A stretch of DNA of 64,000 nt from an uncultured virus (IMG/VR IMGVR_UViG_3300047458_000106) (Duplodnaviria > Heunggongvirae > Uroviricota > Caudoviricetes), in IMG/VR virus record IMGVR_UViG_3300047458_000106; one strand, given 5' to 3'. Below are positions 32,913 through 61,394 of the stretch, piece after piece. The translations under genes were made by a program, and so were the position numbers. Position 1 is the stretch's first letter. Each line of letters begins with the position of its first letter. The notes below the pieces were generated by a model. That model was given only the letters and a program-made list of their open reading frames with translations. It made no database searches and was not told where the DNA came from.

Positions 32913-33950
32913 ATGACACATAAAGTAGACGATACACTAAGAGACGATGGTAGAAGAGAAATATCTCAAGTTACTGGACGAGAGGTTGATAAAGTTGTTC
33001 CAGAACATTTTAAAACAGACTATCCAAAGTTAGTCTCGTTTTTAGAACAATACTATCATTTTGAAGATAGTGATGGTTCACCAAGTAGATTAGTAAATGA
33101 TTTATTTTACACAAGAGATATTAATCAGGTAGATGAATCTTTATTAACTTATATTGAAGACGAGTTATTATTAGGACAATCTTACTTTGAAGGATTTGCA
33201 GATAAAAGAACTGCCGCAAAATTTTCTAATAACTTGTATCGTGCAAAAGGTACAAAGTTTTCAATCGAACAATTTTTTCGTATGTTCTTTGAAGTTGATA
33301 TAGACTTAGAATATACAAAAGAACAAGTTTTTAGAGTTGGTGTAGCAGGTCATGATATTGGTGCAGAATCAAGAAAATTTATCACAAATGCTGAATTGTT
33401 TCAACAGTTCGCATTACGTATTACAAGTGAATTACCATTTAAAAGATGGCAAAGACCATACAAATTATTTGTTCACCCTGCAGGAATGTTTGTCGGGTCT
33501 GCGGTAAGATTAGAAGGAGTCGTACAGAATGACATACTTGCACCAATTAGTTTTGTTGACTCAGACTTAGGACAGATTGATGTGGTAGGTGCAACTGCAT
33601 TTGGTTTTGATGAAGTAACACAATTTTTACCTGAGGTAACTGGTATCGCAAGAGATAGTGGAGATAGTGACGGTATATTTAAAAGAGTTATTATTGATGA
33701 TGGTTTACTTACATCTATTGGTAGCACAAGTATTGTTGATATTCAAAAACAATATGAAACACTACGTGCCGCAGAATTAAGAACATCACCAACATTTGAT
33801 GCAGATTCTACTGGTCTTGCGAATAGTGTAAACATAGACTTTAGTAATGCATTTACTTCTGAAACTATGGACCAAGATAGATTTGAGTTTTTTAGTGCAG
33901 ATAGTGATGTATATTATTCAAAATTAAGTAATCCTGCACACATAAGTTAG
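32913..33950 (+). CDS. gp7: Baseplate wedge gp7-like (short)
   Basis: FLEQYY, YRAKGT...FFRMFF, VHPAGM. Confidence 0.75.
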   Translation: MTHKVDDTLRDDGRREISQVTGREVDKVVPEHFKTDYPKLVSFLEQYYHFEDSDGSPSRLVNDLFYTRDINQVDESLLTYIEDELLLGQSYFEGFADKRTAAKFSNNLYRAKGTKFSIEQFFRMFFEVDIDLEYTKEQVFRVGVAGHDIGAESRKFITNAELFQQFALRITSELPFKRWQRPYKLFVHPAGMFVGSAVRLEGVVQNDILAPISFVDSDLGQIDVVGATAFGFDEVTQFLPEVTGIARDSGDSDGIFKRVIIDDGLLTSIGSTSIVDIQKQYETLRAAELRTSPTFDADSTGLANSVNIDFSNAFTSETMDQDRFEFFSADSDVYYSKLSNPAHIS

Positions 33951-33960
33951 GAATAATTTG

Positions 33961-33968
33961 TATAAATA
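33961..33968 (+). promoter_or_regulatory. Late promoter
   Basis: Intergenic TATAAATA. Confidence 0.75.
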
Positions 33969-33989
33969 GAGACATAGGAAAAAGAAATT

Positions 33990-34994
33990 ATGGCAAAATT
34001 AGTAATCGCAAATGGAACGACTGCAAACGATGGTACGGGTGATACTCTTCGTTCTGCCGCTACCAAGATAAATTCAAACTTTTCTGAGATTTATACAATC
34101 TTAGGTGGTGATTCAACTGCATTAACTTCTAAAATTACATTTGGTGATGGCACAATCATCTTTGAAGGTACAACTGCAGATGCAAATGAAACTACAATAA
34201 TAGCAGACGACCCTGGCGCTGACAGACAAATAGTATTTCCAAATGCTAGTGGTCATGTATTACTAGATTCAAGTACTGCTACATTAACAAACAAAACACT
34301 TACAAGTCCTGTTTTAACAACACCACAAATTAATGATACAAGTGCGAATCACCAGTATGTTGTTGGAGTATCAGAATTGGCCGCAGACAGAACAATTACA
34401 TTACCTTTACTAACTGGTGATGATGAAGTGACATTTAATGCACATACACAAACACTAACCAATAAGTCACTTACAACACCAACATTAAATGCTTCCACAG
34501 TAACAGGATTAAGCGGAGCGGGTGTATTTAATGATTCTGCAGGTAACGAAGCATTGGTTTTAACAAAGACTTCAAGTGCAGTAAACCACATAGGTATTAA
34601 AAATAATGCAACTAATAATGGTCCTATTGTTGAAGCACTTGGTACAGATACAAATATTGATGTTCAATTAACTGCAAAAGGTACAGGTGGTGTTAAATTA
34701 AATAGTCCACAAATATTAACTCAAGAAACTAAAAGTACTACTGGTGCAATATCAAATACAGTTCCATTTACAGAATTTACATCGGGAACTGCTAAAGCAA
34801 ATTCATTGGCAGATGGTGCCTCAGTCGGACAAATGAAAACACTTGTAGTTTCAGGAGCAGGTACAGTAACACTTACACCTGCAAACTTTGGACCAGGAAC
34901 AACATTAACATTAGAACAAAACGAATCTGCAGTTTTAATCTGGGAAGGTACAAACTGGCAAATACTTAGCACATATGGTGGCGCAGTAGCATAA
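33990..34994 (+). CDS. Baseplate/fibre protein with a gp9/gp10-type N-terminus
   Basis: GTTANDGTGDTLRSAATKINSNFSEIY; TLTNKTLT repeats. Confidence 0.75.
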   Translation: MAKLVIANGTTANDGTGDTLRSAATKINSNFSEIYTILGGDSTALTSKITFGDGTIIFEGTTADANETTIIADDPGADRQIVFPNASGHVLLDSSTATLTNKTLTSPVLTTPQINDTSANHQYVVGVSELAADRTITLPLLTGDDEVTFNAHTQTLTNKSLTTPTLNASTVTGLSGAGVFNDSAGNEALVLTKTSSAVNHIGIKNNATNNGPIVEALGTDTNIDVQLTAKGTGGVKLNSPQILTQETKSTTGAISNTVPFTEFTSGTAKANSLADGASVGQMKTLVVSGAGTVTLTPANFGPGTTLTLEQNESAVLIWEGTNWQILSTYGGAVA

Positions 34995-35006: not shown

Positions 35007-36473
35007 ATGGTAGCAATAGTAACAGACCCGCTAAAACAATTAGTTGCGGATTTGATTAAAATAAACGATAGTGATGCAAATAATAATTACTATGCGGCGA
35101 TTGGTCGTTCTGAACAGTGGAATACGACAGATACACCACCAACTCCACTAAGAAATTTAGCGGACGAAATAAAGTTTAGAAATTCTATGCAATCAGTAAA
35201 ATTAATTGGTGATGTTTCAAGAGTTGTTCCTAGAGCAAACTGGACATCTGGTTCAGTATACGATGCATACGATGATGCATCAATAGGATATCCAACAAAT
35301 ACTTATTACGTACTAAACAATAATCAACAAGTATACATGTGTCTTCGTCAAGGTAAAAGTGCGACTGGTGTAGTGCAAGTATCAACAGTAGAACCTAGTG
35401 GTGGTACAAATGGTACTCCATTTAGAGGAACTGATGGATATGTATGGAAGTTTTTGTATTCAATTAGTTCATTAGATGCAAGTAAGTTTCAATCTGCAAA
35501 CTTTATACCTGTAAAATTAGTTGAAGGAATAGATACAAACTCTCCTGTTTCTGACCAAGAACAAAAAGGTGTGCAAGATGCGGCGATTAAAGGTCAAGTT
35601 GTAGGTTATGATATTATTACACCGGGTAATTACACTAGTACACCAACATTAACAATTGAAGGTGATGGTACTGGCGCACAAGCAACTGCGGTTTTGAGTA
35701 ACAATCAAATTGTTGATGTAAAAGTTACAGATAGTTCAGACAACACTTTTAAACTTGCAAACATGGGACAAAATTATAACTATGCAAGTGTTAAAATTAC
35801 TGGTGGTGGTACTGTATCTGCAAAAGCACAGATTAGACCAATACTTTCACCTCCATTGGGACTTGGACATGACCCAACAGACGATTTAAAATCATCATCA
35901 TTGATGTTTAATGCTAAACCGACAGGTGAAGAAAGTCTTGACTTTATTATTGGACAAGATTTTAGACAAGTAGGATTATTAAAGAATCCAAAAGTTGATT
36001 CATCAGGAAATGTATTTAGACAGTTAATGGTTCAAGGTAGACATTATTCTGGTGATTCAGATTCTGGTGGTGGTACACTCTTTACTGCATCTACAGGTAG
36101 AGCAGTAAGAGGATTACAGTTAGCATCGCTTTCTAATAATTTTACAGAAGATAAAACAATTGTTGGTGGCACATCAGGCGCAAGAGCAATCGTAGATAAA
36201 GATTCGGGTTCAGGTAGTGGAACTGCATTGTTCTATCATCAAAATGACTCAACAGGATTTGCAAACTTTATTGCTGGTGAGGCATTAACAGAATCAGATG
36301 GAACAGGTGGCGGTAACATAGAAGCATCATCTGGATATGATAGTGGTACTGCCGCATTTATAAAAGCAGAAGTGAATCCATTTACTGGTGATTTACTGTA
36401 TATTGATAATCGTGCGGCGATTACAAGGTCTGCAGAACAAACAGAAGATATTAAAATCGTAATACAGGTATAA
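35007..36473 (+). CDS. gp8: Baseplate wedge gp8
   Basis: VVPRANWTSG, VYMCL, DGYVWKFLY, FRQVGLLKNP, YIDNRAAITRS..QTEDIKIV. Confidence 0.9.
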   Translation: MVAIVTDPLKQLVADLIKINDSDANNNYYAAIGRSEQWNTTDTPPTPLRNLADEIKFRNSMQSVKLIGDVSRVVPRANWTSGSVYDAYDDASIGYPTNTYYVLNNNQQVYMCLRQGKSATGVVQVSTVEPSGGTNGTPFRGTDGYVWKFLYSISSLDASKFQSANFIPVKLVEGIDTNSPVSDQEQKGVQDAAIKGQVVGYDIITPGNYTSTPTLTIEGDGTGAQATAVLSNNQIVDVKVTDSSDNTFKLANMGQNYNYASVKITGGGTVSAKAQIRPILSPPLGLGHDPTDDLKSSSLMFNAKPTGEESLDFIIGQDFRQVGLLKNPKVDSSGNVFRQLMVQGRHYSGDSDSGGGTLFTASTGRAVRGLQLASLSNNFTEDKTIVGGTSGARAIVDKDSGSGSGTALFYHQNDSTGFANFIAGEALTESDGTGGGNIEASSGYDSGTAAFIKAEVNPFTGDLLYIDNRAAITRSAEQTEDIKIVIQV

Positions 36474-36477
36474 TACT

Positions 36478-39400
36478 ATGGCAACAACATTTACTAAAAA
36501 TACATTCGGAGTTACCTATAAAGATGACTTCGCAGATAGTGATAATTATCATAGAATATTATTCAATTCTGGTAGGGCAGTCCAAGCAAGAGAACTTACA
36601 CAAGCACAAACTATAACTCAAGAAGAACTTGCAAGACTTGGTAGACATGTATTTAAAGATGGTGCCGCAGTTAACCCTGGTGGTCCAACAATTGATAACT
36701 CATATGAATTTGTTAAATTATCAAGCACTATTACAGATGACCAAGTTACTTCACTTGTTGGATTAGAATTTACTGGTGCTACATCAAGTATTAAAGCACG
36801 AGTTGTTCGAGTTGCACAAGCAGTTACAGACACTTCTTTAGCAGAATTATCTGCAAGTGTATCGGCAACTGGTGACCCTGCAACTCTTTTTGTGCAATAT
36901 ACCGAAAGTCCTAGTAATTTATCAGGTACTACACCTGTAAGATTTACTCCAGGAGAAAACATTACTTCTGGTGCAACAACTCTAACAGTTCAGTCAACAA
37001 ACACTACTGCTAACCCGTCAACAGGACAAGGTACATTAGTCAGTAATGGTGCTGGTGATTTCTTTGTAAGAGGACATTTTGTTTTTGCTAAAAACCAATC
37101 TATTTTATTAAGAAAGTATTCTAAGTTTCCAACAGAAGTAGTTGGTTTTGTAGTTACAGAAGATATAGTCACGTTTGCAGACGATGCCGCATTGTATGAT
37201 AATCAAGGTGCAGTACCAAATACCACTGCCCCAGGTGCAGACCGATATAGAATTAATTTAACACTTACAAGAAGTTCAGATGTTACAGGAACACAAAACT
37301 TTGTTTTCTATTGTGACGTAGTTGCTGGTGAGATAGTAGAACAAGTAACAGGTACAGATGACTATAATAAAATAGGTGATGTTCTTGCTTTGAGAACAAG
37401 AGAAGAGTCAGGTAATTACATTGTTAATCCATTTAGATTGAGTTTAGAAGCAGATTCGGCAGGAGCATCTACAAATTTAATTGCAAACGTATCTTCAGGA
37501 ACTGCATACATAAATGGATATCGTTGCAATAAAGAAAAACCAACAAAACTTGTTGTACCAAAACCAAGAACAACAACTACAATTAATAATGAAACTGTTG
37601 GTGTAAATTATGGTTCATTTGTTACTTGTGATACTATTGAAGGTCTTATTCCTGTTGATGGTTCACGAGTAAATTTATCAACATCAACAACTAATCCAGG
37701 TGCTAGTATTATTGGTACCGTAAGAGTTCGTTCAATAACAAAAGATGGTGCTAATTTCAGAGCATATCTTTACGATATAAAAATGAACTCTGGAGAAAAC
37801 TTTAGAAGCACAAGAACAATTGGTACAGGCACGACAGACTTTTTGAAAATATTACTGACAGGTTCTCAAGCAGTATTAAAAGAAGGTAATAATAGTGCAA
37901 TAGTATTCCCTACACCTAGAGTAAGGCCAAAAACTTTATCTGATATTAACTTTGAGGTACAGAGAGTCTTCGCTGGTACAGTAAGTTCAGGAACTGTTAC
38001 GTTAACTGCATTAAGTGGAGAGACTTTTGTAAATACTGCTGATTGGATTGTTACTACAGATTCAAGTGGTGACAGAGTTGCTAATCCAACTTTTGGGTCA
38101 GTAGGGTCACAGTCATTAACTATTTCTGCATTGCCAGATGGAGCACACACAATTTATGCAAAAGTAAACAAAAGCAATGGTTCATCAAGAACAAAAACAC
38201 TTGCAGAATCAACTGTCACTAGAGCGCCTATTACAAATGGTATTGCTGATGGAACTGCAGGACAATTAGTTTATGTAAAACTAGACCACCCAGACATTTA
38301 CACAATTGAAGAAATAAAAGATGGTAGTTCAAGTGGTGCTGATATAAGTGCAAACTTTGATTTAGATAATGGACAAAGACCAGCATTTTATCAAACTGGT
38401 AGAATTATTTTAAAATCAAGTGCAACTGCACCAAGTGGTAATGTTTATGTTAAATACAAACACTTTACACATGGTGCAACAGGTGACTTCTTCTCAGTAA
38501 ATTCATATACTGGTCAAGTAGAATATGAAGACATTCCTGATTACAGACCAGACCAAAGAACAATTGTAAATTTAAGAGACGTAGTTGACTTTAGAGGTAT
38601 AAAAGCATCTGATAGTGGTTCGTCTGCAGGTGCATTTACTCATACTCACGATTTACCTTCAACAGGTGACATTGTAAATACAGATATTGAATACTATTTA
38701 CCAAGAGCAGATAGAGTTGTTGCAAGTACTGATGGAACATTACAACTTATTTCGGGTCAGGCAGGTTTTGCTAGACAACTGCCACCTGTACCTGAAAATA
38801 CTTTAAATTTATTTGAAGTAAATATGAATGGTTATGGTATATCAGATTCAGATGCTAGTGTAAAAACACTTAAGTATAAAAGATTTAGAATGCAAGACAT
38901 TGCTAGACTTGAAGAAAGAATTGATGGATTAGAAGAAACAACTGCACTATCATTTTTAGAAGCACAAACAGAAAACTTATTAATTACTGATTCTGGTGGT
39001 ACTGCCAGAACTAAGTCTGGTTTCTTAGTAGATAACTTTAACGATAGAGGTTTATCTGATGCTCAAGACCCAGATTATCGTGCATCTGTTGACCCTAGTA
39101 CAAACACTTTACACCCACACGTTTCAACACAAAACATACCTTTAATATATGATTCTGGTAAATCTACAAATACTATATTAAAGGGTGATAATGTTTACTT
39201 GACACATACGGAAACTGATGCTATAGTACAAACACAAATTTCTGGCACAGAAAATATTAACCCATTTGCAGTAATAAGTAATGAAGGTCAAATCAGACTT
39301 TCTCCTGCATCTGATACATGGACAGATACTAAATATGACCCTGCAAAAGTTGTTAATCAAGAAGCAACTATTGACATTGGTGATGTTAATGGTCAAGGAA

Positions 39401-41721
39401 ATCAAAATGCTCAAGCATTGAGAATGATATGGAATAGTGTTAGACTTAATGGTATTGTCGGTGGTGTTGGTAATTTAGACACAACTCCTTGGTTTGGTAA
39501 CTGGGTATGGAACTGGGCAGGTATTGAAACTGCGACAACTACAAGTGTAACTGAAAGATTTACTTCTCAACAATCTCAAAATTTAGGTGGTGGTGGAGCA
39601 TTACTTAGAACTACAGAAACTTTCTCACAAAGACAAGTTGTTGGTTCAGGAACAATAAATGAAATAATAGGTGACAGAACTGTATCGTTAACATTTATAC
39701 CTTTCATGAGACCAAGATTAGTGTTCTTTAGAGCAGAAGGTTTAAGACCTGCAACTAGATACTATCCATTCTTTGATGGTGTGTCATTTGATAATTTTGT
39801 AAAAGCAGAAACTTTTAAAGATGTTAGTGGACAAGAGTATAGAGGTAATCAGTATCAAAATTTAAATGCTCACCCTAATACTTCATCGACTTTAGTGACT
39901 GATGCTTCAGGTAAAGTAGAAGGTTCATTCTTAATACCATCTTCTGATACAAATAAATTTAGAGTTGGTGAAAGAGAATTTAAGTTATTAGATATTTCTG
40001 TTGATGATGAACCATCTTCAACTTCTGTTGCTTCTGCAATCTTTACTGCTAAAGGCACATTAGATACTAGACAAGAAACTATACGTTCAACTAGACTAAC
40101 TGTTACTGCGACAAGACGTTGGGACACAGTCACATGGCATGACCCACTTGCACAATCATTTAGGGTAACTGCGCCAAATGGTATGTTTATAACTAAAGTA
40201 CAATGTTATTTTGCTACTAAAGACGATGCTATTCCTGTACAATTACAAATAAGACCAATGGTTAATGGTCACCCAAGTTCATCACAAATTTTCCCAGGGT
40301 CATCTGTATTTGTTAATCCTGGAAGTGTAAATACTGCGACAGGTACTCAAGCAAATGCTCTTGCGGCACCAACAGATTTTGTTTTTGACGAACCAATATT
40401 CTTAAATGCAGACACAGAATATGCAGTTGTACTGCTTTCAGATTGTACAAGTTATAATGCATATGTTGGTAGAACTTATGAATTTGAACTAGGTAGTACT
40501 GAGAAAAGAATTAACAAACAACCTTCAATGGGTAGTTTATTTAAATCACAAAATGGTACTACATGGGAACCAGACCAAACACAAGACTTGGCATTTAAAA
40601 TATCTAAAGCACAATTTACGACTGCTGGTGGTACTGCAACATTTGAAAATGCAAGTGTGCCAAAACAAAAATTAATTAATAACCCAATACTAACTACTGC
40701 AAGTAGTAAAGTCATAAATGTATTAATGCCAGACCATGGATTACATGTTAATGATACTGTCATGATTGAAGGTGTCAGTATTACTAATGGACAAAATGGT
40801 ATTGATTCTTCAGGTACTTTGAACCAAGGAAGTCTTCACGCCAAACATACTGTAACTGCAGTAGATGGTAATGGTTTTCAATTCAATGCGCCTCAGTCAG
40901 GAAATGCAAGTGCATCTGGTTATATAGGTGGTGATAATGTTACATGTACTAAAAACATAGAATTTGATATAGTTGTACCGACTATGGACACACTTTTACC
41001 AGAAGATACTACATTTAATTTAGGTGCGAAGTTTACTACAGGTAAATCTCTTGCTGGTTCAGAAACAAGATTTAGTAAAGATGATAATTTCTCAAATGAT
41101 ATTAGACTAGGTGACGAGAACTTCTTCGATGCTCCTAGAATGATAGCACACGACTCAGATGAAGATGTTGAGTTAGGTGTAGGAACAGGACACGGTAATA
41201 AGTCTGTAGAATTACGAGCAACTATTGATACAATTAGAGCAGACGTTTCGCCAGTAATTGATACACAAAGATGTTCATTGACTACAATTCATAATAGAAT
41301 TGATAAACAAGCAAGTGGTGCCACAACAGGGTTTAATGTTCCGTTGTTTTTTACTGCTGAAACAGAACCTCAAGGTGGGTCACATATCAGTAAGCATATA
41401 ACTAGACCTATTACTTTACTAGAAGATGGAGTGAATTTAAAAGTAATATTTAATTCTCGTAGACCTGCAGAAGCAGATTTTGAAGTTTACTTTAGAACTG
41501 CAAATGAAGGTGTAAATATACACGAAGAACCATATACACTTATGCCATTAGAAAGTCCTGTTGGTGCAGACGAATCTAATTTCTTAGAATACAGATATAA
41601 TGCTCACCCTAATGAAATAGAAGCATTTAATCAGTATCAAATAAAAATTGTGTTTAGGTCAACAAACTCGTCTAAACCACCTTTATTTAAAGATTTAAGA
41701 GTTATAGCAGTTTCTACATAA
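36478..41721 (+). CDS. VrlC-like / DUF4815 large virion protein
   Basis: YHRILF..GRAVQARELTQ, APGADRY, KSGFLVDNF, DPLAQSF, GSLFKSQNG. Confidence 0.85.
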   Translation: MATTFTKNTFGVTYKDDFADSDNYHRILFNSGRAVQARELTQAQTITQEELARLGRHVFKDGAAVNPGGPTIDNSYEFVKLSSTITDDQVTSLVGLEFTGATSSIKARVVRVAQAVTDTSLAELSASVSATGDPATLFVQYTESPSNLSGTTPVRFTPGENITSGATTLTVQSTNTTANPSTGQGTLVSNGAGDFFVRGHFVFAKNQSILLRKYSKFPTEVVGFVVTEDIVTFADDAALYDNQGAVPNTTAPGADRYRINLTLTRSSDVTGTQNFVFYCDVVAGEIVEQVTGTDDYNKIGDVLALRTREESGNYIVNPFRLSLEADSAGASTNLIANVSSGTAYINGYRCNKEKPTKLVVPKPRTTTTINNETVGVNYGSFVTCDTIEGLIPVDGSRVNLSTSTTNPGASIIGTVRVRSITKDGANFRAYLYDIKMNSGENFRSTRTIGTGTTDFLKILLTGSQAVLKEGNNSAIVFPTPRVRPKTLSDINFEVQRVFAGTVSSGTVTLTALSGETFVNTADWIVTTDSSGDRVANPTFGSVGSQSLTISALPDGAHTIYAKVNKSNGSSRTKTLAESTVTRAPITNGIADGTAGQLVYVKLDHPDIYTIEEIKDGSSSGADISANFDLDNGQRPAFYQTGRIILKSSATAPSGNVYVKYKHFTHGATGDFFSVNSYTGQVEYEDIPDYRPDQRTIVNLRDVVDFRGIKASDSGSSAGAFTHTHDLPSTGDIVNTDIEYYLPRADRVVASTDGTLQLISGQAGFARQLPPVPENTLNLFEVNMNGYGISDSDASVKTLKYKRFRMQDIARLEERIDGLEETTALSFLEAQTENLLITDSGGTARTKSGFLVDNFNDRGLSDAQDPDYRASVDPSTNTLHPHVSTQNIPLIYDSGKSTNTILKGDNVYLTHTETDAIVQTQISGTENINPFAVISNEGQIRLSPASDTWTDTKYDPAKVVNQEATIDIGDVNGQGNQNAQALRMIWNSVRLNGIVGGVGNLDTTPWFGNWVWNWAGIETATTTSVTERFTSQQSQNLGGGGALLRTTETFSQRQVVGSGTINEIIGDRTVSLTFIPFMRPRLVFFRAEGLRPATRYYPFFDGVSFDNFVKAETFKDVSGQEYRGNQYQNLNAHPNTSSTLVTDASGKVEGSFLIPSSDTNKFRVGEREFKLLDISVDDEPSSTSVASAIFTAKGTLDTRQETIRSTRLTVTATRRWDTVTWHDPLAQSFRVTAPNGMFITKVQCYFATKDDAIPVQLQIRPMVNGHPSSSQIFPGSSVFVNPGSVNTATGTQANALAAPTDFVFDEPIFLNADTEYAVVLLSDCTSYNAYVGRTYEFELGSTEKRINKQPSMGSLFKSQNGTTWEPDQTQDLAFKISKAQFTTAGGTATFENASVPKQKLINNPILTTASSKVINVLMPDHGLHVNDTVMIEGVSITNGQNGIDSSGTLNQGSLHAKHTVTAVDGNGFQFNAPQSGNASASGYIGGDNVTCTKNIEFDIVVPTMDTLLPEDTTFNLGAKFTTGKSLAGSETRFSKDDNFSNDIRLGDENFFDAPRMIAHDSDEDVELGVGTGHGNKSVELRATIDTIRADVSPVIDTQRCSLTTIHNRIDKQASGATTGFNVPLFFTAETEPQGGSHISKHITRPITLLEDGVNLKVIFNSRRPAEADFEVYFRTANEGVNIHEEPYTLMPLESPVGADESNFLEYRYNAHPNEIEAFNQYQIKIVFRSTNSSKPPLFKDLRVIAVST

Positions 41722-41936
41722 TGAATAGAGAAAGGTATATACAAGTTGAAGGTAATTCTGGACTTGTGAGAGACAGAACGACTGGCGCTATTTTAAATGC
41801 AAACTCAACTGAAATACAAAAAGCACGATTAAAAAAGAATAAGGAAAAACAACAAGAACAAGAAATACAAGAACTCAAAAAAGATGTTTCTGAAATTAAA
41901 GTTCTGTTAACAAAATTAATAGAAAGAAATGACTGA
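41721..41936 (+). CDS. Small coiled-coil protein
   Basis: VEGNSGLVRD..TGAILN; typical position after VrlC. Confidence 0.75.
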   Translation: MNRERYIQVEGNSGLVRDRTTGAILNANSTEIQKARLKKNKEKQQEQEIQELKKDVSEIKVLLTKLIERND

Positions 41937-43341
41937 TAGTAATTTTACAAAAACTCTTACTACTGATAACTTTACACAGTTTATTAATAATACAAACACA
42001 ATTGGTAAAGAAGTTGGTGGTCTTGCAAGATTAACAACTACAGTTGATTCTGATTTAGTTGGTGCGATTAATGAGTTAGACTCAGACATTGGTGCCAGAC
42101 CTCATACTAATTTAAATACAAACACAAAGAATATAACCGCGGCCATAAATGAAATACATACTGCTGGTAATGCCTCATTAGTCGGATTAACACCAGATAG
42201 TGCAAACAAACTTGGTGGTTTTAATGATAGTGCAGAACGAACCACTGTTGGTGGTGCATTAAACTCTTTATCTGCAGATGTTAGAACATTAGATTCTGAC
42301 GTAGGTTCTTCTCGTGCAAAAACTACACTTACAACAACATCTAAAAATATTGTTGGTGGTATAAATGAATTAGATGCAGAAATAGGTGATTCTGCATTAG
42401 ATTCTGGATTCACTGGTATGACTATAAGAAGGGCAATAAATGCACTTGACTCAAACCATGATTCTGCAGTTACACAATTGAAAACAGATATTGGTAATGT
42501 CTTTAGATATCAAACAATAAGTGGTGATACTGGAAGTGACACGGTTGATAGTGCAAATGGTTCAATCGCAATTGTTGGAGACGGTATTATTCAAACCACT
42601 ATGTCAGGTAATAGATTACTTGTTGACCATACAGTAGTTGGTGCAACAGATGTTAATAATAGTGGTAATACATTTGTTCAAGATGTCACTATGGATTCTG
42701 CGGGACATGTTACTGCAGTTTCAAGTGGTGCAGTTGCTATTACAAATACCGATGTATCTGCAGGTGCGGCGATTAATGCAGAAAAAATTCATGACGGAAC
42801 AGTATCGAATACTGAGTTTGGTCACTTAAATGGAGTGACTTCTGCGATACAAACTCAATTTAATGCGATTAGTTTTGACTCTTCGGGACTACAAACCCAA
42901 CTAAATGCATTAGATACTGCAAAAACAACTTTAACTGCAGTTTTCTCCGTGATTTATCCAGTGGGTTCAATTTATATCAATGCGGGTGTTTCTACAAGTC
43001 CAGCAACTTTAATGGGTTTTGGAACTTGGTCTCGATATGGAGAAGGTAGAGTATTAGTAAGTCAAAGCGTTTCTGATACTGAATTTGATACTTTAAACGA
43101 AACGGGTGGTTCAAAAACACATACACTAACAGTATCAGAATTACCTTCTCACACTCACACTCATACAGTAAAAACAGGTCGTAGTTATAGTTCTTCAATA
43201 GGAGGGCCGCCTATTGTCCAAGGGAGTAATAACGTACTTTTAAACAGTTCCGAAGAAACAACATCAAGTACAGGTAGTGGTTCTGCTCACAACAATTTAC
43301 AACCGTATATAGTTGTATATATGTGGAGAAGAACCGCGTAG
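41929..43341 (+). CDS. Tail fibre with AINELDSD repeats and a gp10-like C-terminal domain
   Basis: Repeats LTTxxxx(L/I)VGAINELDSD; IYPVGSIY...GTW...GRVLV...GGSKTHTL...HNNLQPYIVVYMWRRTA. Confidence 0.8.
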   Translation: MTDSNFTKTLTTDNFTQFINNTNTIGKEVGGLARLTTTVDSDLVGAINELDSDIGARPHTNLNTNTKNITAAINEIHTAGNASLVGLTPDSANKLGGFNDSAERTTVGGALNSLSADVRTLDSDVGSSRAKTTLTTTSKNIVGGINELDAEIGDSALDSGFTGMTIRRAINALDSNHDSAVTQLKTDIGNVFRYQTISGDTGSDTVDSANGSIAIVGDGIIQTTMSGNRLLVDHTVVGATDVNNSGNTFVQDVTMDSAGHVTAVSSGAVAITNTDVSAGAAINAEKIHDGTVSNTEFGHLNGVTSAIQTQFNAISFDSSGLQTQLNALDTAKTTLTAVFSVIYPVGSIYINAGVSTSPATLMGFGTWSRYGEGRVLVSQSVSDTEFDTLNETGGSKTHTLTVSELPSHTHTHTVKTGRSYSSSIGGPPIVQGSNNVLLNSSEETTSSTGSGSAHNNLQPYIVVYMWRRTA

Positions 43342-45051: not shown

Positions 45052-45369
45052 ATGGCAATTAATAGAACTGGGACAAATCCAACAAATGATGTAAAATTAC
45101 CGACAATTGATATAGAACCAGAAATAATGTTTCATATGTGTTCACTTTGGGAAACTGGTGCTATTGATAGTAATGGTGCAGTTCTAGATTCAGAACAACT
45201 TGCAGATAAATCGACTTTAAATGAGAATTTAGAATTAATGTTTGAAATAACAACAAATCAAAGTGCAAGAATGATATCAGAATTTCAAGCAATGGATTCA
45301 GATGCAAAATGTATGATTATTAGACCTGCTCATTGTTCGACTTATATTATGCCTGACTCAGACGGGTAA
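45052..45369 (+). CDS. Small acidic hypothetical protein (fibre-associated)
   Basis: SD AGGAG; four DS motifs in 105 aa. Confidence 0.65.
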   Translation: MAINRTGTNPTNDVKLPTIDIEPEIMFHMCSLWETGAIDSNGAVLDSEQLADKSTLNENLELMFEITTNQSARMISEFQAMDSDAKCMIIRPAHCSTYIMPDSDG

Positions 45370-46772: not shown

Positions 46773-46797
46773 CATTTTTAAGTAAATGATATATAAT
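46769..46797 (+). promoter_or_regulatory. Sigma70-type promoter inside the late structural region
   Basis: TTGACA-N17-TATAAT; the -35 box overlaps the upstream TGA stop. Confidence 0.8.
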
Positions 46798-47976: not shown

Positions 47977-48616
47977 TATACCTATAAACAACACAGATGT
48001 TTTAAATTCATTAAATAATTTTTTGTGGTTTTATGAGAATAGAAACAACAAAGATTGGAAAGTGGGTGGCAGAAGTAAGCATAGAAATCATTTTGTTGGA
48101 GATTCACATAAAAACACTATTATCAACATGGGTAGAAATCATGATGGATATCCAGAAAGTGGATATTACTACAATTTTAAAGCAGATGGCAATCGTGGTA
48201 AAGATTTACCAAAAGAGATAATACAACAGTATAACATAGTTAATACAGAATTGCAAGAAAAATTGTGTACTAAACATAATGCTTTATGTGTTATGTACCC
48301 ACCTGGTGGATTTATAAGTTGGCATAACAATGCAAATGCAAGTGCATATAATTTGATTTTCACTTGGTCTGAAACTGGTAATGGATATTTTAAATATATT
48401 GACGGTGAAACAAAAGAAGAGATTGTTATTAAAGATAAACCTGGTTGGCAATGTAAAGCAAGTTATTTTGGAGCATACATAGAACCAGCATATAAATTAG
48501 TCTATCATACTGCATCTACTGACTGCTGGCGCATAACAGTATCTTATGTCTTTAATAGAGAAGAAATGTCTCTTGGTTTACAAGAAGATGTAATCGAAGA
48601 AATAAAATCTAAATAA
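47969..48616 (+). CDS. Cupin/2OG-Fe(II)-like oxygenase
   Basis: YPPGGFISWHNN...YHTA...RITVSY double-stranded beta-helix pattern. Confidence 0.55.
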   Translation: MLDIPINNTDVLNSLNNFLWFYENRNNKDWKVGGRSKHRNHFVGDSHKNTIINMGRNHDGYPESGYYYNFKADGNRGKDLPKEIIQQYNIVNTELQEKLCTKHNALCVMYPPGGFISWHNNANASAYNLIFTWSETGNGYFKYIDGETKEEIVIKDKPGWQCKASYFGAYIEPAYKLVYHTASTDCWRITVSYVFNREEMSLGLQEDVIEEIKSK

Positions 48617-48686: not shown

Positions 48687-49061
48687 ATGGCGCACACACA
48701 AAATTACGAAGACATAGTTATACCACAAGGGACAGACACCGCAATAGAACTACATTTAGTTAAAGAATCTGACGGAACTGCATTTGATTTAACAAACTAT
48801 TCTGCAGAAGCAAAGATGAAACGTAGACATGGTGATAGTGCCAATGACCCAAATACTGTAACATTCAATGCAATCATACCAACACCTGCATCGTCAGGTA
48901 TTGTCACATTAAGTCTCTCTAGCGATTCATCGCAGGGTTTAAACACTCGAGGACGTTATGTATGGGATTGTGAAGTGTCTTTTGTAGATTCAGATGGTAA
49001 AACAATAGTACAAAGAGTCGCAGAAGGACAAGCAGAAATAAGTCCGTCTGTAACATATTAG
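48687..49061 (+). CDS. Small virion protein (BppU-N-like Ig fold)
   Basis: IPQGTD, FDLTNYS, GIVTLSL, GRYVWD, RVAEG...SPSVT. Confidence 0.65.
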   Translation: MAHTQNYEDIVIPQGTDTAIELHLVKESDGTAFDLTNYSAEAKMKRRHGDSANDPNTVTFNAIIPTPASSGIVTLSLSSDSSQGLNTRGRYVWDCEVSFVDSDGKTIVQRVAEGQAEISPSVTY

Positions 49062-52000: not shown

Positions 52001-54580
52001 GACGTTAGTGGTTTAGTTCACGAAGTAGGTATTGAAGAACATCAAAGAGTTTATAACAATAGTGGTGCAACAATCACAAAAGGTAAACCAGTATACTTCT
52101 CTGGTAACTACACGGGCGGTGCAGTAGATGTACCAACAGTAGCACTTGCAGATGCAACTGATACTGCAAAATACAATGCACAAGGTTTAACTGCAGTAGC
52201 AATACCAAATAATTCGTATGGATATATTCAGACTTCTGGTCAGTTATCAGGACTAGATACTTCTGGTTTAACTGCAGGTCAAAAAGTCTTTGTTGGTCTA
52301 GGTTCTGGTTTATTATCAAATTCTACACCACTATATCCAAACTATCCAATATGTTTAGGTTGGTGTGTAAGTTCGAATGCTTCAACGGGTGTAATTTTAC
52401 TTAACAGACAAGCACACACAATTGACTCATTAAGAGTTGTGACTTCGGGTCACATAGGAAGTAATTTACAGATTGACGGAAACTTAACAGTTCTAGGGTC
52501 AACAACCTCTGTATCGTCTGCAGACTTAACTGCTGGTACACCAATGTTCAGATTGAATGAAGGTAATGCAATCGGTGAGGCAGGAACAACTTTTTCGGGT
52601 ACAGGATTAGATGATGCCTTCTATTCAGGATTCTTTACTGGTACTGCGAATCAAAACTATTATGTTAGAATTGATGGTGTTGGTACAGGTGCAGGTGGCG
52701 TAGATACATTTGAAGTAGCATTTGCCGCAGATAGTACATTCTCTTCACCAGTATTAACTAAGCAACCAATTACTGGTTCTGCTCAGATGATTCATTCAAC
52801 TGATAACATTTCAATCAACTTTGCATCAACTACGGGTCACGATTCGGGCGCAAGATGGGCAGGTACTGCTGGACCAATTAATGTCGATACTGGTTTCTTC
52901 TCAAACAGAAACACTGGTTCTTCAGGTGTAGGATTTACTTATGTTGGTATTTACTATGATGTTTCAGATGATAAATGGAAACTAATAGATGAATACGATT
53001 CAAACCCAAGTGGTAGTATTAATGAAGCAGATGCTTCTTACAGTTTAGGTACATTAAAACTTGATACTCTAGAAGGTAATGTTACAGGTAATGTAACTGG
53101 TAATGTATCAGGAACTGCCGCTACTGTTACAGGTGCCGCACAGTCTAATATTACAAGTGTTGGTACTCTTACTGGGTTAACAGTTGGTGGTGATTTAACT
53201 CTTGACTCTGCGGGTGCAGTAGTTTACGATAAGTCTGAAAAAGCATTAACATTCGGTGATAAGCATTTTATAAAATTTGGAACTGGTGGTGATGCAAACA
53301 TAAGACATGACGGAAACAATACTAAATTTACACATACGGGTACGGGTGGATTATATATTGGTGCAGATACTTTTGCACTTCAAAATGGAACACACGATGA
53401 AAACTATATTGTCATGGGAGACAATAGTTCGGTAGAATTATATGAAGATAATGTTAAAAGGTTAGAAACAACCACAACTGGTGTCTCTGTCACTGGACTT
53501 ATGGCAAGTACGACTGCGACTGCAGACTCGGCCACAATAGGTAATCTTGCTTCTAGTTCAATAAACACAAATGCATTACAAGTAGATGATATCACGATAG
53601 ATGGCACAGAAATAGATTTATCTAGTGGTGACTTAACATTAGATGTTGCAGGAGATATTATCCTTGATGCTGATGGTGGAGATATAAGATTTAAAGATGG
53701 TGGTACAGAAATTGGTGTTATAGAAAATTCTAGTTCTGATTTACAAATAAAATCTGCTGTACAAGATAAGGACATAATATTTAGAGGTAATGATGGTGGT
53801 TCTGGGATTAATGCACTTACTCTTGATATGTCTGCAGGTGGTGCGGCAATATTCAGCGACCAAATAACTCTTGGTGGTAATTTAATCCATGCAGGAAACC
53901 TTACTGTAGATGTAGGTGGTGATATAACACTTGATGCAGATGGTGGAGATATTAAATTAAGCAATGGTGGTACTCAGTTTGCAAACTTTGGCGACGCCAC
54001 CGGTGCTGTACATATAGATGCTGTAATTTCAGATGATGATATTAAATTTAGAGGTGTTAGTGATGGCACTACATTTACTGCATTGACATTAGATATGTCT
54101 GATAGAGGTAATGCAACCTTTGGTGCTGGTGCTACCTTTAATAGAAGAACTGAAATATCAACTGATTCTGATTATCAACTTAGAATTGACAATGGTAGTA
54201 ATATTTGGTATAATCGAGTTCAAGGTGATGGTACTTTTGCTTTACACTTAAATGGTACTGGAAATATTCTCCATGCAACTTCAACTGGTATAGGTGTCAC
54301 GGGTAATGCAGATATATCTGGTACATTATCAGTTGGTAATTTAAATGTAGACTCTGCAGACATAATTAAGATTGCAAGAGATAATTTATCTACTGGTCAA
54401 GCAGGATTAACTTACGATAGTTCTGGTGGTCAGTTTGGACTAAATGCAAATCATGTAATGGCACTAATACAAACAGTTGACTCAAATGGTAGTGGTCTAA
54501 ATGCCGCAACGTTAGATGGCCAAGAAGGTACACACTACAGAATTAACGTATACAATAACTCAGGAACTCTATTGAATTAA
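49070..54580 (+). CDS. Long tail fibre, 1836 aa
   Basis: DLGSATKKWKDLFL, GDLTVQGTTTTVN, DSAT repeats, DADGGDI repeats, C-terminal GSGLNAATLDG. Confidence 0.85.
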   Translation: MAVNKITLKKVVVGTPIKTVTAGSFGINNLGGVTTTGQASGTILAFNLSSGNYEVAQFTGDSNMFVTYDSSGSPDSFKINFTNDSISGNLVPRLDSAQDLGSATKKWKDLFLSGGTINIGSLKVKDENGNFVVRDSDGGTVLTNPKFITVNGDTDILAYDSNTSTFTFNDSDIARTDENETFHKNVIIAGDLTVQGTTTTVNTEEINLADNIIRINSNATGVPTETGGIAIERGDSDNKLFVWDETNDRWTIVSETFYTLGLIRGGQLVGDSGTITSLASTTHTANTITANNTTSVNVTSTNLITGANANIDSATIGNLSITNMLASSGDSATFTNIANTQFTGSQATIDSATITNLNADSSDIRQLSTEFINFDSAFGDSATITNLANTQLTASQITVDSATINTLNVDSSDVRQISTEFINFDSAFGDSATITNIATTQLTVANANIDSAHVTNLSAANFSMSSGDSATITNIANTQLTGSQATLDSATITKLNVDSADIDHFSTENINFDSATGDSATITNIASTNVNVDQLFTDSATITNIANSVLTAKAITNTSQVGDSATITNIANSVLTAKAITGTSANIDSATIGNLATTQITLSQVTADSATINTINADSSDIRQFSTEFINADSAFIDSATIGGIALGNNDLVTTGKLYYANVFGSEGDLPDANSHHGMFAHVHGTGKGYFAHAGAWHQLLDKSSANDSATITNLASTQLTVDNATFDSSAHNTIHASAVTIDSATIINLANTQFTSSQITSDSATINTLNADSSDIRQFSTEFINFDSAFGDSATITNIANSVLTAKVITGDSATVTNIASSQLTIDNASFDSAAANVLHAGDLTADSATLKNVAVTTQLTGKDATFDSAATNKLHSGTITSDSATVTNIASTSINTDNLFVDSATVTNLANTQLTASQATIDSADIGNLRTTGVLQADSVNATQLELLTGVTNVPAHKEGRLFYDDSNKTIGFYSDVSGLVHEVGIEEHQRVYNNSGATITKGKPVYFSGNYTGGAVDVPTVALADATDTAKYNAQGLTAVAIPNNSYGYIQTSGQLSGLDTSGLTAGQKVFVGLGSGLLSNSTPLYPNYPICLGWCVSSNASTGVILLNRQAHTIDSLRVVTSGHIGSNLQIDGNLTVLGSTTSVSSADLTAGTPMFRLNEGNAIGEAGTTFSGTGLDDAFYSGFFTGTANQNYYVRIDGVGTGAGGVDTFEVAFAADSTFSSPVLTKQPITGSAQMIHSTDNISINFASTTGHDSGARWAGTAGPINVDTGFFSNRNTGSSGVGFTYVGIYYDVSDDKWKLIDEYDSNPSGSINEADASYSLGTLKLDTLEGNVTGNVTGNVSGTAATVTGAAQSNITSVGTLTGLTVGGDLTLDSAGAVVYDKSEKALTFGDKHFIKFGTGGDANIRHDGNNTKFTHTGTGGLYIGADTFALQNGTHDENYIVMGDNSSVELYEDNVKRLETTTTGVSVTGLMASTTATADSATIGNLASSSINTNALQVDDITIDGTEIDLSSGDLTLDVAGDIILDADGGDIRFKDGGTEIGVIENSSSDLQIKSAVQDKDIIFRGNDGGSGINALTLDMSAGGAAIFSDQITLGGNLIHAGNLTVDVGGDITLDADGGDIKLSNGGTQFANFGDATGAVHIDAVISDDDIKFRGVSDGTTFTALTLDMSDRGNATFGAGATFNRRTEISTDSDYQLRIDNGSNIWYNRVQGDGTFALHLNGTGNILHATSTGIGVTGNADISGTLSVGNLNVDSADIIKIARDNLSTGQAGLTYDSSGGQFGLNANHVMALIQTVDSNGSGLNAATLDGQEGTHYRINVYNNSGTLLN
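49870..51900 (+). repeat. Coding repeat array DSAT(I/V)TN, including four NxDSSD(I/V)RQxSTEFINxDSA units
   Basis: Visible in the translation; codon-diverged at DNA level; boundaries approximate. Confidence 0.85.
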
Positions 54581-55372: not shown

Positions 55373-56245
55373 ATGGCAACAAACCAGTATTTTAAACAGA
55401 AAGTTCGTTCAGAACAACAACTCTTTGAGGATTTAGTTATAGAATCTTTACAGATGTTTGGACAAGATGTCTATTATTTACCTAGAGAAATAGTTAACAA
55501 AGATAAAATCTTTTTAGATGACGTTCCATCTAGATTTTCAGATGCATACAAAGTAGAAATGTATATTGAAAATGCAGAAGGGTTTGAAGGTGAAGGAGAT
55601 TTATTTACAAAGTTTGGTGTAGAGTTAAGGGACCAAGCAACATTTATTGTTTCAAGAAAAAGATGGGTGCAATTAGTTGGTAAACGATTAGAGGTAGCAA
55701 ACTTTAGACCAAGAGAAGGTGATTTAATATATTTACCAATGTCTGAATCTATGTTTGAAATACGTAGAGTTGAAACTGAAACACCATTTTATCAATTAAA
55801 AGATTTACCAACATTTAGATTACAATGTGAATTGTTTGAGTACAGTGGTGAAGACTTTGATACTGGCGTAGACACAATACAAGATGTTGAAACAGAAGGT
55901 TCTTTCAAATATAATTTATCACTTGATTCAGGTGGTGGTAGATTTATTCAAGGTGAAACTGTCACACAAGTATTCGATACTTATAATATGATTGGAGAAG
56001 TTGCATTTGCATCTGATTCTGGTAATACTTTACAACTAATTCACAGTGGCGCAACTGATGGATTGTTTCATGAATGGACTACAACTAGAAGTATTATTGG
56101 TAACCAAAGTCAACACGTGGCAACACCGACTTCAATAAATCAAATAAATGATATATTGAGTGATAATCAGAATAAAACTTTTGACGATTTTGAGTCAGAC
56201 TTTCTAGACTTTAGTGAAGGTAATCCATTTGGAGATATGTCGTAA
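55373..56245 (+). CDS. gp14: Neck protein gp14
   Basis: EQQLFEDLVIES, GQDVYYLPRE, RPREGDLIYLP, DFSEGNPFG. Confidence 0.95.
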   Translation: MATNQYFKQKVRSEQQLFEDLVIESLQMFGQDVYYLPREIVNKDKIFLDDVPSRFSDAYKVEMYIENAEGFEGEGDLFTKFGVELRDQATFIVSRKRWVQLVGKRLEVANFRPREGDLIYLPMSESMFEIRRVETETPFYQLKDLPTFRLQCELFEYSGEDFDTGVDTIQDVETEGSFKYNLSLDSGGGRFIQGETVTQVFDTYNMIGEVAFASDSGNTLQLIHSGATDGLFHEWTTTRSIIGNQSQHVATPTSINQINDILSDNQNKTFDDFESDFLDFSEGNPFGDMS

Positions 56246-57027
56246 TGTTTGGTACTCATTTCTATCACAAAAGAGTTCGAAGTGCAGTAAGTGTCTTTGG
56301 GTCGTTATTTAATAATCTTTATGTACTTAGACAGAACTCTGCAGGTGAAACTATTTCACAAGTTAAAGTGCCACTATCATATGCGCCAAAAAGAAACTTT
56401 CTTGCTCGAATAGAACAAATGACAAATGGCGAACAAAATGAAAGACTCGTTGCAATTAAATTACCACGTATGTCTTTTGAAATAAATGGTATAGCGTACG
56501 ATGAAACAAGACAATTAAATAAGATGAATAACTTAAATAAAGTTCTTGCTGGTTCAACAATATCAAGACAAAAGTTATTTACTGCAACACCATACAACAT
56601 TAATTTTGATTTAAATGTTTATGCTAAGTCTCAAGACGATGCACTACAAATAGTAGAACAAATATTTCCATTCTTTACGCCACAATATACTGTTTCAGTA
56701 AAACCTTTTAGTAATGTTGCATTGAGTGAAGACGTACCAATTACATTGACAAGTGTTTCTTTTACAGATGACTTTGAAGGTTCAATAGAACAAAGACGAA
56801 CAATTGTATATACACTAAGTTTTGAAATGAAAATAAACTTTCACGGACCACTTGGCACAAGTAAAATTATTCGTGAAGTTAGTAATAACTTGTTTATCAT
56901 TGATAGTGCGGCAGATAGTGGTGATTACTACAAAACACAAAATATAACACCAACACCAGCAAATGTAAGTGCAGATAGTGATTATGGATTCAATACAGTA
57001 GATTCCGATAATATAAGTAATATATGA
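56245..57027 (+). CDS. gp15: Tail terminator / sheath stabilizer gp15
   Basis: FYH, FGSLFNN, VPLSYAPK, LPRMSFE, QIVEQIFPFFTP. Confidence 0.95.
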   Translation: MFGTHFYHKRVRSAVSVFGSLFNNLYVLRQNSAGETISQVKVPLSYAPKRNFLARIEQMTNGEQNERLVAIKLPRMSFEINGIAYDETRQLNKMNNLNKVLAGSTISRQKLFTATPYNINFDLNVYAKSQDDALQIVEQIFPFFTPQYTVSVKPFSNVALSEDVPITLTSVSFTDDFEGSIEQRRTIVYTLSFEMKINFHGPLGTSKIIREVSNNLFIIDSAADSGDYYKTQNITPTPANVSADSDYGFNTVDSDNISNI

Positions 57028-59521: not shown

Positions 59522-59534
59522 AAAACACCTTTTG

Positions 59535-59542
59535 TATAAATA
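59535..59542 (+). promoter_or_regulatory. Late promoter of gp18-gp19
   Basis: Intergenic TATAAATA. Confidence 0.75.
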
Positions 59543-59609
59543 AAAGCATATATTGAAATATAACCGTATTATGATAACTTATAATTAGACAAACGAATAG
59601 GATAGAATC

Positions 59610-61394
59610 ATGGCATTATTTACACCTTCGGCATCGCCTGCGGTAACTGTAAAAGAAATCGACTTAACGGGAGTAGTCCCTAATGTTGCAACTAATACAG
59701 GTGCTTTTGTAGGTAACTTCGGTTGGGGACCAGTAGGAGAAACTACACTTGTTTCAAACGAAGCAGGACTAGTAGAAGTTTTTTCTGCACCAACAACTGA
59801 CAATACGGTTGACTTTCACTCGGCCGCTTTCTTTTTAAAATACTCTAATGCACTACAAGTAGTACGTGAGACAGACTCAGATGCTAGAAACTCTCTAGCA
59901 GTTAACAATAAAACTGGTACTAATGCAGTAGCAACTAACCAAGCATTAAACAATTTAAATGCATTTGAGGCCGCATCAATCGACTCAAATGATGGTGCAT
60001 TTATTGGAAGATTTCCAGGGGCATTAGGTAACTCTTTATTAGTATCAGTCTGTGGAAGTTCAGACTCAGACGGTAGTGGTGCTATTAATTTTAATTCATG
60101 GACATACAAATCACAATTTGATGCCGCACCAGGGACTTCTTCATTTGTAAGTGGTCTTGGTGGTAAAAACGATGAAATACATATAGCAGTTGTTGACGAA
60201 GATGGTGAAATATCAGGAACTGCTGGTACAGTTTTAGAAACATATCCTTTCTTATCAGTTGCCTCTAATGCAAAAGCAACTGATGGTACGTCTAATTATT
60301 ACAAAGATGTTATCAAAGCACGTTCAGAATACATTTATGCTGGCGCATTTCATAGACATGGTGATTCAGATGGAATCAACGATTTCTCTGGTGCTTTATG
60401 GGATACTGCGGCAGTAAATGGTTCTCAAAACTTTGCTTCTGATGTAACTTTTGGAACAGGTCAAAACGAATGGTCATTTACTGGTGGTGCTAGTTCATCA
60501 TCATTAGGTACAGATGACATATTAAGAGGTTTTGATAAGTTTGAAGATGTTGACAATATTGAAGTCGACTTCTTAATTGCTCCAGAATCTATCGCAGATG
60601 CTAATGCAACTACAGTTGTAAATGACTTAGTTGCTACTGCATCATCATTAAGAAAAGATTGTGTAGCAGTTGCATCGCCTAGTAGAAATGCGGCAGTCAC
60701 ACTTGGTACAAATACGGCAGTATTAGCATGTAATAATACATACACTAAATCATCTTATCTAGTACAAGATAATAATTATCTGAAAGTATTTGATAAGTAT
60801 AACGACCAATTTATTAAGATTCCTGCGGCATCAAGTACTGCAGGTCTAATGGCGGCAACTGACTTAGTTGCGGCAAATTGGTTCTCACCTGCTGGACAAA
60901 GACGTGGTAGATATCTAGGTATTACAGATATCGAATTAAGTCCAAATAAATCTGAAAGAGATACACTTTATAAAGCAGGTATAAACCCAATAGCAAATAT
61001 ACCAGGTCAAGGTATTATGTTGTTCGGTGATAAAACTAACGAATCTAGACCATCTGCATTTGATAGAATCAATGTCAGACGATTATTCTTAGGTATAGAA
61101 AGAGCAATTGCGATTGCTGGTAGAAATGTAATGTTTGAATTCAACGATGAGTTTACTCGTGCTGAGTTCGTAAACATTGTCGAACCTTTCTTAAGAGAAA
61201 TTCAAGGTCGAAGGGGTATAACAGACTTTAGGGTTGTTTGTGATTCAACAAATAACACCGCGGCAGTTATAGATAGAAACGAGTTTATTGCAAGTATATT
61301 TATTAAACCTGCAAGAAGCATTAACTTTGTGACTCTTAACTTTGTAGCAGTTAGAACTGGTGTAGAGTTTGAAGAAGTCGTAGGAACAGTTTAA
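59610..61394 (+). CDS. gp18: Tail sheath gp18
   Basis: SPAVTVKEIDLT, FGWGP, WFSPAG, FGDKT, FDRINVRRLF, KPARSINF. Confidence 0.97.
   Translation: MALFTPSASPAVTVKEIDLTGVVPNVATNTGAFVGNFGWGPVGETTLVSNEAGLVEVFSAPTTDNTVDFHSAAFFLKYSNALQVVRETDSDARNSLAVNNKTGTNAVATNQALNNLNAFEAASIDSNDGAFIGRFPGALGNSLLVSVCGSSDSDGSGAINFNSWTYKSQFDAAPGTSSFVSGLGGKNDEIHIAVVDEDGEISGTAGTVLETYPFLSVASNAKATDGTSNYYKDVIKARSEYIYAGAFHRHGDSDGINDFSGALWDTAAVNGSQNFASDVTFGTGQNEWSFTGGASSSSLGTDDILRGFDKFEDVDNIEVDFLIAPESIADANATTVVNDLVATASSLRKDCVAVASPSRNAAVTLGTNTAVLACNNTYTKSSYLVQDNNYLKVFDKYNDQFIKIPAASSTAGLMAATDLVAANWFSPAGQRRGRYLGITDIELSPNKSERDTLYKAGINPIANIPGQGIMLFGDKTNESRPSAFDRINVRRLFLGIERAIAIAGRNVMFEFNDEFTRAEFVNIVEPFLREIQGRRGITDFRVVCDSTNNTAAVIDRNEFIASIFIKPARSINFVTLNFVAVRTGVEFEEVVGTV

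Follow-up and report, generated by a model that had tools for sequence, protein, structure and literature searches.

Asp-Ser-(Asp/Ala), a clade-wide motif in the virion proteins of uncultured marine T4-like phages and a candidate address for phage-encoded O-glycosylation

The window, i.e. the whole stretch of DNA analysed here, comprises the first 64 kb (64,000 nucleotides) of the 130,252-base virus record IMGVR_UViG_3300047458_000106, which has a G+C content of 34%; a T4-like virion module was recognized that extends from gp25 to the portal (PHROG and Pfam scans). The virion proteins of this phage are marked by the residue pair Asp-Ser (DS), typically followed by Asp or Ala, which represents a real, selected and clade-wide protein motif. 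On balance we lean towards the view that Asp-Ser-(Asp/Ala) is the address for a phage-encoded O-glycosylation of the virion surface. The nearest named record is phage C48C1 (57% in gp15, 34% in gp8), but the motif is found throughout a broad uncultured clade, whose loci were retrieved via gp8 and the family of protein 47242.

The enrichment was determined for 14 virion proteins encoded between positions 32913 and 61394 (enzyme and terminase genes, namely 46818, 47242, 47948, 57024, gp16 and gp17, and a 71-aa open reading frame (ORF) were excluded), and the expectation was obtained from 2000 rounds of within-protein shuffling. DS occurs 127 times compared with a shuffle mean of 52.6 and a maximum of 75 (reached in 0/2000 rounds), whereas the reverse pair SD is present 66 times, including 37 occurrences outside DSD. 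DS followed by one of the residues ADGSNT, a class set post hoc on this genome and designated DS-small, amounts to 122 sites versus 27.8 expected. Without the three fibres there are still 45 DS versus 29.0 (4/2000 shuffles) and 44 DS-small versus 13.8 (0/2000), and the long fibre without its repeat region retains 20 DS versus 8.7. In a similar 14-protein set with 130 DS, this pair is the most over-represented of all 400 dipeptides; there is no excess of DT (45 vs 63.3), ES (20 vs 28.7) or NS (37 vs 57.5), and the signal is therefore specific for Asp-Ser. An earlier note on this DNA, which was based on hand counts, had claimed that DS is enriched across the virion and that it recurs on unrelated folds rather than in one expanded repeat. 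Both claims are borne out, and its counts were all correct (59 DS in the 1836-aa fibre, 13 in fibre 41929, 10 in fibre 43357, 8 in gp8, 6 in gp7, 4 each in gp15 and the 105-aa protein, 3 in the 124-aa protein). The sites that it reported in VrlC, gp14 and gp18 all have a small +1 residue, but plain DS is at chance level in these proteins (9 vs 9.7, 2 vs 1.8 and 5 vs 3.6, respectively). The lack of DS in gp19, gp32 and the gp27-like hub is correct as well but uninformative, because merely 0.5, 1.6 and 2.1 were expected. The motif-bearing proteins are the following:

32913..33950, plus strand: gp7-like baseplate wedge protein, 6 DS, all with small +1 residue (1.1 expected)
33990..34994, plus strand: gp9-like fibre connector, 3 DS-small (0.8 expected)
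35007..36473, plus strand: gp8 baseplate wedge, 8 DS-small (1.8 expected)
36478..41721, plus strand: VrlC-like protein (DUF4815), 9 DS, all with small +1 residue (4.7 expected)
41929..43341, plus strand: fibre with Gp10_C tip, 13 DS-small (2.0 expected)
43357..45042, plus strand: fibre, 10 DS-small in the N-terminal half (2.5 expected)
45052..45369, plus strand: 105-aa protein, 4 DS
48687..49061, plus strand: 124-aa fibre-assembly-type protein, 3 DS-small
49070..54580, plus strand: 1836-aa fibre, 59 DS
55373..57027, plus strand: neck proteins gp14 (2 DS-small) and gp15 (4 DS-small in the C-terminal 41 residues)
59610..61394, plus strand: tail sheath gp18, 5 DS-small (1.8 expected)
genome 66255-67559 (L001:3255-4559), outside the window: major capsid protein, DS-small at residues 130, 136 and 147

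It is most improbable that the motif is a by-product of repeat expansion, of composition or of the DNA motif GANTC, a methylation site spelled by GAY-TCN, that was inherited in one clade. The largest counts are indeed located in the repeat fibres: residues ~291-1000 of the 1836-aa fibre consist of 5-residue repeats with Asp at position 1 and Ser at position 2, and Ser follows 39 of the 58 Asp. Furthermore, GAYTC encodes 84 of the 130 DS, and the related genomes are not independent of each other. However, the fibre-free excess is preserved, the remaining 46 serines have AGY codons in a background-like ratio to the 84 TCN codons, and the two alternative frames show no surplus of GANTC (9 and 9), which rules out GANTC as an explanation. 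In 21 of the 28 columns that are common to at least five of 15 genomes (two p48687 and gp8 columns lie in gappy regions), the serines are encoded by codons of both families, thus placing the signal at the protein level. Codon-family switches at shared sites, together with the turnover of sites, argue for selection on the protein.

The preferred form of the motif is apparent from the relatives. At 419 DS sites in the outer core proteins of 14 other genomes, Asp (5.0x) and Ala (3.2x) lead the +1 position, followed by Ser (1.2x), Gly (0.9x) and all other residues with at most 0.6x; the clade motif is therefore D-S-(D/A), and DSD is its commonest form. Hydrophobic residues and Thr are depleted at +1 (L 0.35, I 0.27, V 0.48, M 0.18, T 0.36), and the observed/expected ratio (O/E) of DT-small does not exceed 1.08 in any of the clade genomes. 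Given the depletion of Leu, phosphopantetheinylation with its motif DSL was rejected. The earlier note had compared DS with the O-glycosylation sequon of Bacteroidota, D-(S/T)-(A/L/V/I/M/T), which according to the available text of the source applies to non-cytoplasmic targets and does not accept Glu (PMC12871550). Both have Asp immediately in front of the hydroxyl residue, and DS is enriched here while ES and NS are not. In the Bacteroidota, as far as that text describes them, the acceptor is Ser or Thr and a hydrophobic +1 residue is preferred, whereas here Thr is not enriched, L/I/V/M are depleted and Asp is favoured, and the comparison fails in both respects.

The sites are located where the virion proteins vary. 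In the gp8 alignment they are found in variable loops and differ by lineage, with 98 sites distributed over 35 columns, 18 of which are occupied in a single genome, and most columns are lineage-specific across seven core proteins. In these proteins 310 of 377 DS-small sites are positioned near an indel compared with 1544 of 3283 other Asp, a contrast whose P value is overstated given the relatedness of the genomes. In the predicted model of gp8 (pLDDT 83.5) seven of the eight serines are in coil and one is at a helix end, which is consistent with sites in loops but not decisive, because about half of gp8 is coil. The three capsid sites (residues 130-147) fall into a segment that remains unaligned between residues 133 and 225 of T4 gp23, presumably its outward insertion domain, and the major capsid protein contains 18 sites versus 6.7 expected in eight genomes with the glycosyltransferase (GT) gene GT25a, which is introduced below. 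Depletion is seen in gp6, a protein of the inner ring, where 15 GT25a-positive genomes have 3 sites vs 24.9 expected; the comparison sets yield 10 vs 12.3 and 7 vs 7.1 for gp6. In the motif-less orthologues of the sister clade, the respective columns contain varied residues or gaps.

A candidate operon within the methyltransferase/GT cluster at the beginning of the window accompanies the motif:

4461..5189, plus strand: GT25-like glycosyltransferase GT25a, whose presence splits genomes with and without the baseplate motif
5186..5845, plus strand: GT25-like glycosyltransferase GT25b
5790..6485, plus strand: GT8/nucleotide-diphospho-sugar transferase-like protein
6891..7523, plus strand: CstII/GT42-like protein 6891 (sialyltransferase fold), kept in all clade genomes examined

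The order GT25a-GT25b-GT8-(nuclease)-CstII-like is syntenic in 8/8 genomes that were read whole or largely, with a diverged gene occupying the GT8-like slot in two of them. Profile searches matched GT25 structures with GT25a (E 7e-6) and GT25b (E 6e-8) and, more weakly, procollagen galactosyltransferase (E 4e-4 for GT25b, 0.13 for GT25a); neither gene has a close match among cultured phages. Protein 6891 matches solely C48C1 among 50,697 phage records, and a match is absent from HTVC008M. Its invariant residues N10, G11, N29, G130 and D132 are part of the pattern GNG...CN...G...GxD, a profile of its distant relatives matches CstII (E 0.006), and one relative occurs as a fusion with a GT8 domain. 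The three best Foldseek matches of its model (pLDDT 94.9) are all sialyltransferases at TM values of 0.35-0.43. Judged from this predicted model and the conserved residues, 6891 is a protein with a GT42/GT29/Maf-like motif and a Rossmann-like fold. Twelve matches of the 6891 family were found in contigs of bacterial metagenome-assembled genomes from scattered taxa (L352-L363), and ten of them adjoin genes of this phage; they are therefore probably misbinned phage DNA rather than cellular homologues.

Relatives were found by searching with the 6891 protein of C48C1 and have both GT25 genes, GT25b only or neither. Of the 31 long contigs that were searched 21 contain gp8, and 19 of these were scored together with eight earlier genomes and C48C1, using the O/E of DS[DA] in gp7, gp8 and VrlC; the absence of GT25a from partial contigs was judged from the 8 kb upstream of 6891 and from whole-contig searches. 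The ratio is 4.1-8.4 in 19/19 GT25a-positive genomes, several of which are near-duplicates, and 0-0.81 in 9/9 GT25a-negative relatives. All five cultured outgroups, namely HTVC008M, Melnitz and three cyanophages (gp8 and VrlC only), are in the range of 0.48-0.89. In the fibres, genomes without either GT25 gene have a DS-small O/E of 1.16-1.69, those with GT25b alone 1.10-2.60 and those with both genes 0.81-5.75; the range of four outgroups is 0.82-1.27. This pattern indicates that 6891 marks the clade without guaranteeing a strong motif and that GT25a is a marker of the motif's extension to baseplate and capsid. Regarding the writer of the motif, GT25a fits the baseplate and capsid pattern, and 6891 fits the weaker, fibre-only excess of the sister lineage. 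The earlier note had named the GTs at 1.5-7.5 kb as potential writers, and the operon at 4461-7523 inside this cluster does track the motif. The check that it had proposed, whether orthologues from phages without the GTs lack DS, gave this outcome for the baseplate motif in the absence of GT25a, in a single clade contrast, but not in the absence of 47242. A tblastn search of cultured phages for a motif-less homologue of the fibre repeat retrieved merely matches to a short tip-like segment or to low-complexity sequence.

Several observations weigh against a glycosylation address. We infer every step that leads from the motif to a sugar. In a gp6 tree (quick method) the seven placeable GT25a-negative genomes form one clade that is sister to the rest, and their distribution is therefore a single evolutionary contrast. 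GT25a changes its state only twice in the 6891 tree, and the second change concerns contig L271, which is GT25a-positive inside the sister clade and ends short of the virion genes; a second independent contrast was hence not obtained, with G019 and G038 yielding only gp7 and gp9. The mild fibre excess persists without either GT25 gene, and the fibres of the GT25a-positive genome G001 show no excess (0.81). A paired effect of GT25b in the sister clade had to be rejected, as one pair agrees, one ties and one is opposite. The Foldseek matches of 6891 are weak, and its fold is common to pyrophosphokinases. An avoidance of the motif in non-virion proteins (O/E 0.71) is no evidence, since the controls C48C1 (0.72) and HTVC008M (0.60) are low as well. 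Finally, GT25, GT8 and GT42 are jointly the classic enzymes of lipooligosaccharide synthesis. In the accessible part of a study on SAR11 myophages such genes were proposed to modify the host surface (PMC7029224).

The other GT to which the earlier note had assigned the modification, 47242, belongs to a fixed trio of genes:

46818..48616, plus strand: 147-aa protein 46818, DxD-motif GT-A-like protein 47242 and 2-oxoglutarate (2OG)-Fe(II)-oxygenase-like protein 47948

47242 has an invariant Y-x-D-x-D and weak links of GT2/GT8 type; its GT-A label is based on the DxD motif, on Glycos_transf_2 matches in 33 of 116 homologues and on an atlas neighbour. The trio is present in seven relatives that lack the baseplate motif (C48C1, G011, G012, G013, G014, G027, G036) and missing from two motif-rich genomes, namely G006 (complete) and G007 (91% complete). 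On the basis of this mismatch in gene content, 47242 was rejected as the writer. What stands of the proposal is a protein-level motif on unrelated outer folds, with turnover in variable loops, in a clade with a GT operon; 47242 as the writer and the Bacteroidota sequon do not. Protein 14608, the only one of GT-B type (Glycos_transf_1 match), has homologues in 0/8 compared genomes. The trio is nearly always located downstream of a DS-poor repeat protein of the 45390 type, which in the window is free of DS, is composed of Phe/Thr/Gly/Asn repeats with 14 N-x-S/T and exceeds 3000 aa in relatives, and the 47948-type oxygenase displays the signature H-x-N...H. The 45390 repeat protein and the trio (45390-48616) constitute a possible second, separate modification system.

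A structural or ion-binding role appears rather unlikely. Asp-Ser turns and DSD loops would bind Ca2+ or Mg2+ from seawater or cap the rungs of beta-helices and coiled coils, the Asp, possibly after hydroxylation through a 2OG oxygenase, would bind iron, and the GT operon would act on the host envelope and co-occur with the motif by ancestry. The predominance of DSD, the 5-residue repeat of the long fibre, whose position 3 is often a small residue irrespective of DS, and the weak match of this fibre to designed repeat solenoids (E 0.014) are in accordance with such a role, and so is the single contrast behind the link between gene and motif. The nearest named atlas match of 47948 is an aspartyl beta-hydroxylase-like cluster (0.92). 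However, the motif is found on unrelated folds and in shifting loops, the motif-less sister orthologues do without any fixed substitute, and neither Thr nor Asn replaces the Ser. A DS-linked Asp hydroxylase 47948 was rejected, because the distribution of the trio does not match the motif and Pfam and PDB profile searches for it found nothing; moreover, 2OG oxygenases are abundant in the motif-free HTVC008M.

The strict Asp-Ser with an acidic or small +1 residue would suit any sequon-reading enzyme, and the serines might also carry a mark other than a sugar, i.e. a phosphate, a phospho-linked group or the mark of a host enzyme. We consider this improbable. The phage encodes a protein with a P-loop kinase-like domain at genome position 107430, and the fold of 6891 includes pyrophosphokinases, but the 107430 protein has no match in the motif-rich G007 and is present in the motif-poor C48C1. 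No protein kinase family was detected among the 75 ORFs, a subset, that were scanned with Pfam, and the genes that follow the motif are glycosyltransferases.

Under the glycosylation reading, which is the most parsimonious one, a phage glycosyltransferase would recognize D-S-(D/A) and O-glycosylate the Ser on fibres, outer baseplate, neck, sheath and capsid, modifying the serines in the host cytoplasm during assembly. The first sugar would be transferred by GT25a or by the CstII/Maf-like 6891, the remaining enzymes would extend or cap it, and the variable upstream methyltransferases and GTs may decorate the glycan. New sites would be selected at exposed loops, and the resulting coat would protect the virion or modulate its adsorption. 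The assembly of T4-like virions takes place in the cytoplasm; the targets of the Bacteroidota system are non-cytoplasmic proteins. That the clade owns such a sequon system, with a cytoplasmic enzyme and a tag that spread from the fibres to baseplate, neck, sheath and capsid after the gain of GT25a, is a serious possibility, which we put forward tentatively.

The closest parallel is found in staphylococci, where, in the available text, the cytoplasmic GT SdgB glycosylates even the bare tripeptide DSD, using a nucleotide sugar on the Ser of Asp-Ser-Asp, and a second enzyme, SdgA, extends the glycan that shields the surface protein (PMC8561734). Both are described there as enzymes of the GT-B type whose substrates are long SD tandem repeats, whereas the phage has dispersed sites and GT25/GT8/GT42-like candidates; its longest DS run is DSDS in gp8, and long tandem repeats of the SdgB type were not found in the phage set. 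Phage-encoded GTs and a virion glycan shield have been reported for mycobacteriophage Che8 (Freeman et al. 2023, as cited in PMC11256854 and PMC12619734). Both systems have phage-encoded GTs, but we infer the virion glycan here from genes, and the mycobacteriophage glycans are placed by these sources at the C-termini of capsid and tail-tube subunits, in contrast to a dispersed three-residue sequon on unrelated proteins. Maf, in the accessible text a probable, cytoplasmic Ser/Thr glycosyltransferase of flagellin with a CstII-related fold (PMC3426422), modifies a filament protein and shares pattern and fold with 6891 (PDB 2x61, 1ro7). However, 6891 is a single domain of 210 aa, no sequon is reported for Maf in that text, and CstII caps glycans, not protein. 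The host-recognition islands of pelagimyophages resemble the present genome as marine T4-like counterparts that have GTs close to the fibres and encode curli CsgF/G, an epimerase and a UDP-glucose dehydrogenase (PMC7029224, available part), but their GTs are interpreted there as modifiers of the host O-chain, and HTVC008M has neither a DS excess nor 6891. A glycosylated Ser on a triple beta-helix is described in the available text on the CryoSeek glycofibril TLP-12, whose G-S-x-x-S dodecapeptide is assigned to alveolates and is not the same motif (bioRxiv 10.1101/2025.09.30.679562). Our literature search, which left subscription journals largely outside and did not cover supplements, brought up no description of the D-S-(D/A) motif in phages.

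Glycosylation of phage virions is known from few cases, and a sequon that is visible in the genome would, if true, add an abundant ocean lineage. It would assign a testable role to GT clusters that are usually taken as modifiers of the host surface or of DNA, provide a small cytoplasmic enzyme for the glycosylation of three-residue tags, and make a glycan coat legible straight from the genome sequence.

Curli CsgF/G, IscU/IscA, an epimerase and UDP-glucose dehydrogenase are encoded elsewhere in the genome. The curli genes are part of a CsgF/CsgG, FecR and CHASE2-adenylate cyclase cluster at genome 95201-101222 (L002), like in pelagimyophages. In 5 of 64 collection parts scanned, the nearest named cell matches of the phage IscU are SAR86 proteins (70-71% identity); as a pointer to the host this sequence similarity is only a hint. 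An AurF/ferritin-like di-iron protein is encoded at genome 74384-75469 (L001), with homologues in 0/8 compared genomes. The methyltransferase/GT cluster starts with a cytochrome c gene (PF00034; window 1091-1525) and a fragment at window 21-419 that is possibly alternative-oxidase-like. A TET-associated glycosyltransferase (PF20691; homologues in 2/8 genomes) and a Glycos_transf_1 gene (0/8) at window 13079-15666 are likely a DNA hypermodification pair. GATC occurs a single time in the 130 kb of this genome (G000), while the loci of some relatives have none and those of others ~100 per 20 kb, which suggests that a lineage-dependent restriction or methylation site of the host is avoided.

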